A stretch of 553 bases of DNA from a phage. Shown here in pieces: positions 1 to 553 of the stretch (positions are counted from its first letter, which is position 1; every line of letters starts with the position of its first letter). Where the stretch lies: sequence record EF517010.1, one strand, 5' to 3'. The notes below the pieces were generated by a model. It made no database searches and had not been told where the DNA came from. It saw nothing but the letters and a program-made list of their open reading frames with translations. The position numbers and the translations under genes were made by a program.

Positions 1-497
1 GGAACATCTGCGTAGACAATACTGCTAACAGTTACTGGCTCTCTCGTGTATCTAAAACGATTCCGGCACTGGAACACTTAAACGGGTTTGATGTTCGTTG
101 GAAGCGTTTACTGAACGATGACCGTTGCTTCTACAAAGATGGCTTTATGCTTGATGGGGAATTCATGATCAAGGGCGTAGACTTTAACACAGGGTCCGGC
201 CTACTGCGTACTAAATGGACTGACACGAAGAACCAAGAGTTTCATGAAGAGTTATTCGTTGAACCAATCCGTAAGAAAGATAAAGTTCCCTTTAAGCTGC
301 ACACTGGACACCTTCACATAAAACTGTACGCTATCCTCCCGCTGCACATCGTGGAGTCTGAAGAAGACTGTGATGTCATGACGTTGCTCATGCAGGAACA
401 CGTTAAGAACATGCTGCCTCTGCTACAGGAATACTTCCCTGAAATCAAATGGCAAGCGGCTGAATCTTACGAGATCTACGATATGGTAGAATTATAG
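1..497 (+). CDS. 1.3: ATP-dependent DNA ligase (T7 gene 1.3 family), 5'-partial, ending at an in-frame premature TAG at 495-497
   Basis: Frame with codons at 3-5, 6-8, ... has no stop from the window edge to 495 and reads NICVDNTANSYWLSRVSKTIPALEHLNGFDVRWKRLLNDDRCFYKDGFMLDGEFMIKGVDFNTGSGLLRTKW...YDMVEL*. This matches my recollection of T7 DNA ligase starting just after the motif I lysine (KYDGVRG, outside the window). Nucleotidyltransferase motif III (FMLDGE) is encoded at about 144-161. The ATG at 147 is an internal Met, not the start. Assignment is from memory, not a database search. Confidence 0.85.
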   Translation, partial: NICVDNTANSYWLSRVSKTIPALEHLNGFDVRWKRLLNDDRCFYKDGFMLDGEFMIKGVDFNTGSGLLRTKWTDTKNQEFHEELFVEPIRKKDKVPFKLHTGHLHIKLYAILPLHIVESEEDCDVMTLLMQEHVKNMLPLLQEYFPEIKWQAAESYEIYDMVEL

Positions 498-553
498 CAA
501 TTGTACGAGCAGAAGCGAGCAGAAGGCCATGAGGGTCTCATTGTGAAAGACCC
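498..553 (+). other. 1.3: In-frame continuation of the ligase reading frame downstream of the amber codon (motif IV region), 3'-partial; translated only if the TAG is suppressed or absent
   Basis: Same frame after the TAG reads QLYEQKRAEGHEGLIVKDP. EGLIVKD (531-551) is the conserved motif IV of ATP-dependent ligases and, as I recall it, matches the T7 ligase sequence following VELQ. There is no frameshift between the two segments. Confidence 0.75.

Follow-up and report, generated by a model that had tools for sequence, protein, structure and literature searches.

Mutation accumulation as the probable source of an amber codon in a DNA ligase gene fragment of phage T7

The window, by which we mean the whole 553-nucleotide stretch of DNA that was analyzed, is a segment of the DNA ligase gene of phage T7 that differs from the wild-type phage at 13 positions. 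Every difference is a G:C to A:T transition, and one of them converts a glutamine codon into an in-frame amber codon. We infer from these 553 bases that the sequence probably records the build-up of mutations in a ligase gene that was dispensable to a heavily mutagenized laboratory T7 lineage. A sequence-only reading made earlier had focused on the stop codon and had taken it for a classic suppressible amber allele, wherein one lesion interrupts an otherwise wild-type gene. This interpretation is not supported by comparison with T7, as the amber codon is accompanied by 12 other G:C to A:T changes, five of which are missense, and even the leucine codons that flank it (positions 492 and 501) have undergone C to T transitions.

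A segment of gene 1.3 with an amber codon at position 205

Every base of the window pairs with one in nucleotides 6593 to 7145 of wild-type T7 (V01146), and the alignment needs no insertions or deletions. It therefore lies wholly inside the gene 1.3 coding sequence (nucleotides 6475 to 7554 of that record), which encodes the ATP-dependent DNA ligase, and it carries codons 41 to 224. Wild-type T7 is also the best megablast match among phages (97.6% identity, again without indels), and the window has no ambiguous bases. The gene 1.3 frame is open across the window's 183 codons save for a single TAG at positions 495 to 497 (all coordinates are given for the plus strand of the window), which is the only in-frame TAG present. 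The part of the gene that is still translated, codons 41 to 204 (positions 3 to 494), matches the adenylation domain profile PF01068 over profile positions 35 to 166 of 204. Codons 206 to 224 (positions 498 to 553), which lie 3′ of the stop and are presumably untranslated, read QLYEQKRAEGHEGLIVKD in frame. Neither strand of the window gave an Rfam match or contained a promoter-like or terminator-like site, and the minus-strand open reading frames, 20 to 49 amino acids in length, look like chance occurrences.

The sequence at positions 492 to 503 is TTA TAG CAA TTG, with the TAG in frame as codon 205. Around this codon the T7 protein reads VEL-Q-Q-LYEQ and the window VEL-*-Q-LYEQ (the asterisk marks the stop), just as the earlier reading had stated. 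A codon-by-codon alignment of the window with eight relatives (67–99.8% identity) reveals that codon 205 is CAG, for glutamine, in T7 and in PHB20, CHRF_10027 and PGX1, the natural relatives closest to it, and the ligase reading frame is open in all eight. Because the closest homologs agree on CAG, this is the ancestral codon as judged by the alignment, and a single C to T change at position 495 (T7 nucleotide 7087) turned it into TAG. The earlier proposals on both points are thus borne out. Neither of the outcomes that the earlier reading had named as refuting it is seen within the 553 bases, as close homologs carry CAG and a single in-frame stop is present.

Residue 205 itself is poorly conserved. 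The codon specifies Trp, Ser, Thr or Ile in Berlinvirus, Teetrevirus and Yersinia phages that are more distantly related. An unrelated laboratory T7 mutant (OL964750.1, “Mutant Escherichia phage T7 clone T7_1t3”) carries a CAG to CAT change (Q205H) at the same ligase codon and is otherwise identical to wild type over this stretch. The range of residues found among relatives and mutants (Q, H, W, S, T and I) identifies the position as tolerant of substitution.

Spectrum and density of the changes

Seven of the 13 differences are synonymous. These are a G to A change at position 74 (codon 64, GAG to GAA) and C to T changes at positions 98 (codon 72, CGC to CGT), 108 (codon 76, CTA to TTA), 212 (codon 110, ACC to ACT), 242 (codon 120, TTC to TTT), 492 (codon 204, CTA to TTA, three bases 5′ of the amber codon) and 501 (codon 207, CTG to TTG), the last of which creates a new in-frame TTG three bases past the stop. 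Five differences are missense: a C to T change at position 162 (codon 94, CTC to TTC, L94F) and G to A changes at positions 168 (codon 96, GTC to ATC, V96I), 361 (codon 160, GGA to GAA, G160E), 447 (codon 189, GAA to AAA, E189K) and 474 (codon 198, GTC to ATC, V198I). The amber mutation at position 495 completes the set. Leu94, Val96, Val198 and Gly160, which is part of an ESGED stretch, are invariant in all relatives compared; residue 189 is variable, and lysine also occurs there in a Yersinia phage. The change at position 162 also produces an EcoRI site, as GAACTC at positions 159 to 164 becomes GAATTC; this new site could matter if the lineage were typed by restriction mapping.

By class, the changes comprise eight C to T and five G to A transitions (13 of 13 G:C to A:T); A:T to G:C transitions and transversions are both absent. 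At all 13 sites, T7 has the same base as PHB20 and CHRF_10027, the two closest outgroups, and thus every change is derived on the lineage of the window. Wild-type laboratory T7 therefore behaves, in this alignment, as the direct ancestor of the window. Natural divergence over the same stretch has a very different composition, wherein G:C to A:T changes account for only 7 of 34 differences between T7 and PHB20 and for 13 of 64 between T7 and CHRF_10027, and the remainder are A:T to G:C transitions and transversions. The spectrum of the window departs from that of each natural pair (Fisher p = 5.5e-7 for PHB20 and 5.7e-8 for CHRF_10027), and the probability that all 13 changes would fall in this one class at the natural rate of approximately 20% is about 1e-9. 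A spectrum of this kind is a mutagen signature.

G:C to A:T changes dominate when T7 is mutagenized with nitrosoguanidine or hydroxylamine (Bull and colleagues, PMC6042481). The amber mutation therefore does belong to the hydroxylamine-type class to which it had been assigned from the sequence, although alkylating agents produce the same class. As summarized by Stoltzfus and McCandlish (PMC5850294), the nitrosoguanidine-grown T7 lines of Cunningham et al. (1997) acquired 11 nonsense codons, all of which arose by G:C to A:T changes.

Sequence context provides some further guidance regarding the agent. When each site is viewed on the strand carrying the mutated G, this base is preceded by a purine in 10 of the 13 cases, compared with a background of 50%, a difference that is marginal (p = 0.046). 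MNNG-induced O6-methylguanine mutagenesis characteristically favors a G that follows a purine, but the bias alone cannot separate nitrosoguanidine from hydroxylamine or EMS. We lean toward nitrosoguanidine-type alkylation, with repeated hydroxylamine treatment as the alternative, and consider the former only somewhat better than an even proposition. Three of the C to T changes (positions 492, 495 and 501) fall within ten bases. We considered this cluster as a possible sign of nitrosoguanidine co-mutation and set it aside, as the clustering is not significant (p = 0.15).

The density of changes is equally informative. The 13 changes amount to 2.35% of the 553 bases and 4.9% of the G/C sites in the window. 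According to published rates, nitrosoguanidine gives T7 approximately four viable mutations per genome with each infection, and hydroxylamine gives at most eight per genome with each treatment (PMC6042481). A single round of mutagenesis at four to eight mutations per genome would be expected to leave 0.06 to 0.11 changes in 553 bases. Under these conditions, the probability of at least two changes in the window does not exceed 0.006, and that of at least 13 is below 1e-22. If four mutations accumulate per genome per generation, 13 changes correspond to approximately 235 generations (95% confidence interval 125–400). A load so far above that of one round suggests long-term passage under a mutagen rather than a one-step mutant hunt. 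A nitrosoguanidine-treated T7 population is reported to have carried approximately 245 mutations per genome, or 0.6%, as a genome-wide average. The density in the window exceeds this average, as would be expected for a neutral gene.

Constraint on the gene and fate of its product

Whether the ligase gene was under selection while these changes accumulated can be judged from their coding effects. Among all possible G:C to A:T changes at the 264 G/C sites of the window, 106 are synonymous, 142 are missense and 16 are nonsense (40, 54 and 6%, respectively). The observed split of seven synonymous, five missense and one nonsense is consistent with this unselected expectation (exact p = 0.44), although a sample of 13 gives the comparison little power. 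In addition, four of the five missense changes (L94F, V96I, G160E and V198I) affect residues that are invariant in all relatives compared. Because the split fits random hits and most of the amino acid replacements fall at invariant positions, gene 1.3 looks unconstrained in this lineage. The phage ligase is known to be non-essential when the host ligase is normal (PMC2696425).

The amber codon is readily accommodated by the same reasoning. Given 13 random hits, the probability of at least one nonsense codon is 0.57 in the window and, at the same rate, approximately 0.78 in the whole gene. A stop is thus likelier than not at such a load, and the amber codon is an expected by-product of it. These considerations suggest that the amber codon is a passenger, neither selected for nor isolated on purpose. 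Loss of the ligase may itself have been favored, and the sequence may represent one clone rather than a population consensus.

The position of the stop determines which parts of the enzyme can still be made. In T7 ligase, Pfam places the adenylation domain (PF01068) at residues 9 to 240 and the C-terminal domain (PF17879) at residues 241 to 349, and codon 205 falls inside PF01068 at profile position 166 of 204. The catalytic lysine, Lys34 in the sequence KYDGVR, is encoded just upstream of the window. Nucleotidyltransferase motif III (residues 88 to 96, positions 144 to 170) is present in the translated part but has changed from FMLDGELMV in T7 to FMLDGEFMI through L94F and V96I, both of which alter residues that are invariant in all eight relatives compared. 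We take FMLDGELMV to be motif III from what is established about ATP-dependent ligases. Motif IV (EGLIVK, residues 217 to 222, positions 531 to 548) is intact in the DNA but lies 3′ of the stop and so is absent from the product, and motif V (WWKMK, residues 236 to 240, with Lys238 and Lys240) and the whole C-terminal domain also lie downstream. The 204-residue product thus retains motifs I and III but ends before motif IV, so that motif V and the C-terminal domain are lacking as well. A functional enzyme would need a full set of adenylation-domain motifs (I, III, IIIa, IV and V) and the C-terminal domain within a single open frame, which the interrupted gene does not offer.

A comparison with T7 DNA ligase of known structure (PDB 1A0I, PF01068 plus PF17879) makes the same point. 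The window encodes residues 41 to 224 of this protein with five substitutions and one stop, whereas its product ends at residue 204, short of motifs IV and V and the C-terminal domain. Because these parts are missing, the 204-residue product should have no ligase activity, a prediction that follows from the established roles of the motifs. Separately, the replacement of an invariant glycine in G160E may be sufficient to inactivate the ligase independently of the stop.

We considered whether translation could restart past the stop. The new TTG at position 501, which is in frame and three bases beyond the amber codon, has no Shine–Dalgarno signal (−2.8 kcal/mol, compared with a background mean of −2.0). 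The strongest anti-Shine–Dalgarno match in the window (−6.1 kcal/mol) is formed by GAGGG at positions 531 to 535, which is followed after seven nucleotides by an in-frame GTG (Val221, positions 543 to 545). This arrangement is the same in wild-type T7, and so it is unrelated to the mutations. A fragment begun at either codon would lack Lys34. Rescue by restart is therefore unlikely.

Suppression of the amber codon offers no simple route back to the wild-type enzyme. The sequence-only reading had proposed that a supE host, which inserts glutamine, would restore the original protein exactly. Such a host would indeed return Gln205, but L94F, V96I, G160E, E189K and V198I would remain. With G160E and two changes in motif III predicted to persist, full restoration in a suppressor host is doubtful. 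A C immediately 3′ of UAG, as is present here, is a weak suppression context.

Origin of the sequence and comparison with known systems

The explanation that we favor, mutation accumulation in a laboratory lineage, would proceed as follows. A descendant of wild-type T7 would have been passaged over a long period, for something like a hundred generations or more, in the presence of a mutagen that causes G:C to A:T changes, most likely a nitrosoguanidine-type alkylating agent or, alternatively, hydroxylamine applied repeatedly. If the host supplied a normal ligase, then gene 1.3 would have been dispensable and hence under little or no purifying selection, and it would have accepted changes at a near-raw mutational rate. 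One of the changes accumulated in this way would be the conversion of the Gln205 codon from CAG to TAG, such that translation in an ordinary host would end after residue 204. The resulting fragment would be inactive, and the phage would rely on the host ligase.

Several other histories can be weighed against this one. One is that proposed by the sequence-only reading, wherein a single round of hydroxylamine-type mutagenesis produced a suppressible gene 1.3 amber in an otherwise wild-type phage that supE could restore. The codon and the class of change are both right for this history, as CAG, glutamine in T7 and its closest relatives, becomes TAG through one C to T transition of the kind that hydroxylamine induces. 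The 12 additional G:C to A:T changes, with their five missense replacements, are not; the probabilities given above for one round of mutagenesis apply here directly, and supE would not recreate the wild-type protein. Nor would an amber at this codon be conditional-lethal in the usual sense, since the phage ligase is non-essential on hosts whose own ligase is normal (PMC2696425). A literature search for the gene 1.3 amber HA13 returned no relevant paper. We consider this history extremely improbable. Its suggestion of a laboratory ligase-amber strain was nonetheless half right: a laboratory origin is very likely given that all 13 changes are derived from T7, whereas a defined single amber is at odds with the 12 further changes.

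The alternative suggestion, a natural or evolved ligase-null variant, divides in a similar manner. An evolved null is close to our own conclusion, but a natural one is not supported by differences that all fall in one class and on one side. Natural relatives with 80–92% identity do exist, and residue 205 varies among the distant ones (W, S, T and I), so that a T7-like phage whose ligase gene decayed in nature might be imagined. However, natural pairs exhibit about 20% G:C to A:T changes rather than 13 of 13, none of the 180 related phage records that a near-identity search returned is closer to the window than wild-type T7 is, there is no net sharing of variants with them, and the ligase reading frame is open in all natural relatives examined. 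Natural decay is accordingly an exceedingly unlikely source of the window.

Hypermutation or an artifact local to the fragment deserves greater weight than either of these, yet we judge it to be unlikely as well. This could take the form of a PCR clone of DNA whose cytosines had been deaminated by heat or chemical damage, in vitro treatment of a cloned ligase gene with hydroxylamine, bisulfite or a deaminase, or targeting of a ligase construct by a deaminase fused to T7 RNA polymerase. Cytosine deamination also yields exclusively G:C to A:T changes, deaminase–polymerase fusion systems exist (bioRxiv 10.1101/2024.07.25.605042), and the window is a short sequence with no match in any collection searched. 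The distribution of the changes argues otherwise. C to T and G to A changes occur in proportion to the C and G content (p = 0.41), meaning that both strands were hit, unlike the outcome of complete bisulfite conversion or of a strand-biased deaminase. There is no enrichment of TC, CC or WRC contexts at the 13 mutated sites, and on this basis APOBEC- or AID-type deamination was rejected. There are also no indels or ambiguous bases, and the marginal purine–G bias would point to alkylation.

It is also conceivable that TAG is read as sense, such that the lineage evolved on a host that suppresses amber codons, or on a recoded host with RF1 deleted, and made full-length ligase. T7 has been evolved on amber-suppressing or recoded hosts and can adopt amber codons (PMC8923235 and, as cited there, Hammerling et al. 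2014). Given the tolerance of residue 205, the position would probably accommodate nearly any amino acid inserted there. However, only one of eight potential TAG sites in the window was converted, with no excess of TAG over random expectation, and G160E together with the changes in motif III argues that the protein was not maintained. The T7 heat/selenocysteine evolution study fixed approximately 10 substitutions per genome, none of them synonymous, and gained no new ambers; this profile is unlike that of the window, and we rejected that study as the source. Full-length ligase from a TAG read as sense on such a host is thus very unlikely. We likewise give very little credence to the more elaborate proposal that TAG205 is a captured sense codon on an amber-decoding host, or that termination followed by reinitiation at the TTG at position 501 yields a two-piece ligase, and we found no positive support for either.

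Database searches gave no second copy of the sequence. A megablast search of a plasmid collection with the window produced no match, and two diagnostic exact patterns were absent from viral, genome and metagenome contigs, whereas a relaxed pattern, used as a positive control, recovered wild-type T7 in IMG/VR. An exact-protein look-up of the truncated product in a protein collection found none. A protein homology search with positions 3 to 494 returned seven matches, all of 250 amino acids or fewer and at most 76% identical. This search missed the 359-amino acid T7 ligase itself, and its negative outcome consequently says little about the presence of the product in public data.

Among known systems, the closest parallel to the proposed mutation accumulation is found in the long-term nitrosoguanidine lines of T7. 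As far as they are described in the papers that cite them, these share with the window a wild-type laboratory T7 ancestor, exclusively G:C to A:T substitutions, G:C to A:T nonsense codons in genes that are dispensable in the laboratory and a load of hundreds of generations. The same citing papers place the changes in the lines of Cunningham et al. mainly in the early 0.3–0.7 region, whereas those described here are in the ligase gene. Classic hydroxylamine-induced phage ambers resemble the window in having a single C to T change of CAG to TAG that can in principle be read by a glutamine-inserting supE tRNA. They differ in that the window is not isogenic with its parent, carrying 12 further changes in 553 bases, and in that its gene is non-essential on normal hosts. 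The predicted phenotype, a phage without its own ligase, is that of the T7 and T3 phages with engineered deletions of gene 1.3 that have served in studies of compensatory evolution; such phages are viable where the host ligase is normal but severely impaired where it is defective (PMC2696425). Those phages carry a deletion, whereas in the window the gene is damaged by a point nonsense mutation and by missense changes.

The result bears mainly on annotation and provenance. The sequence is best labeled as a laboratory-mutagenized T7 derivative with a pseudogenized ligase; a label that implies natural variation, recoding or a defined amber strain would not fit it. On this reading, the window would show, on a small scale and cleanly, how a phage gene that is not needed decays at the raw mutational rate when a mutagen causes G:C to A:T changes. 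It also illustrates that what appears to be a textbook amber can be a by-product of mutation load, and that the interpretation of one stop codon should wait until the whole spectrum of changes around it has been surveyed.
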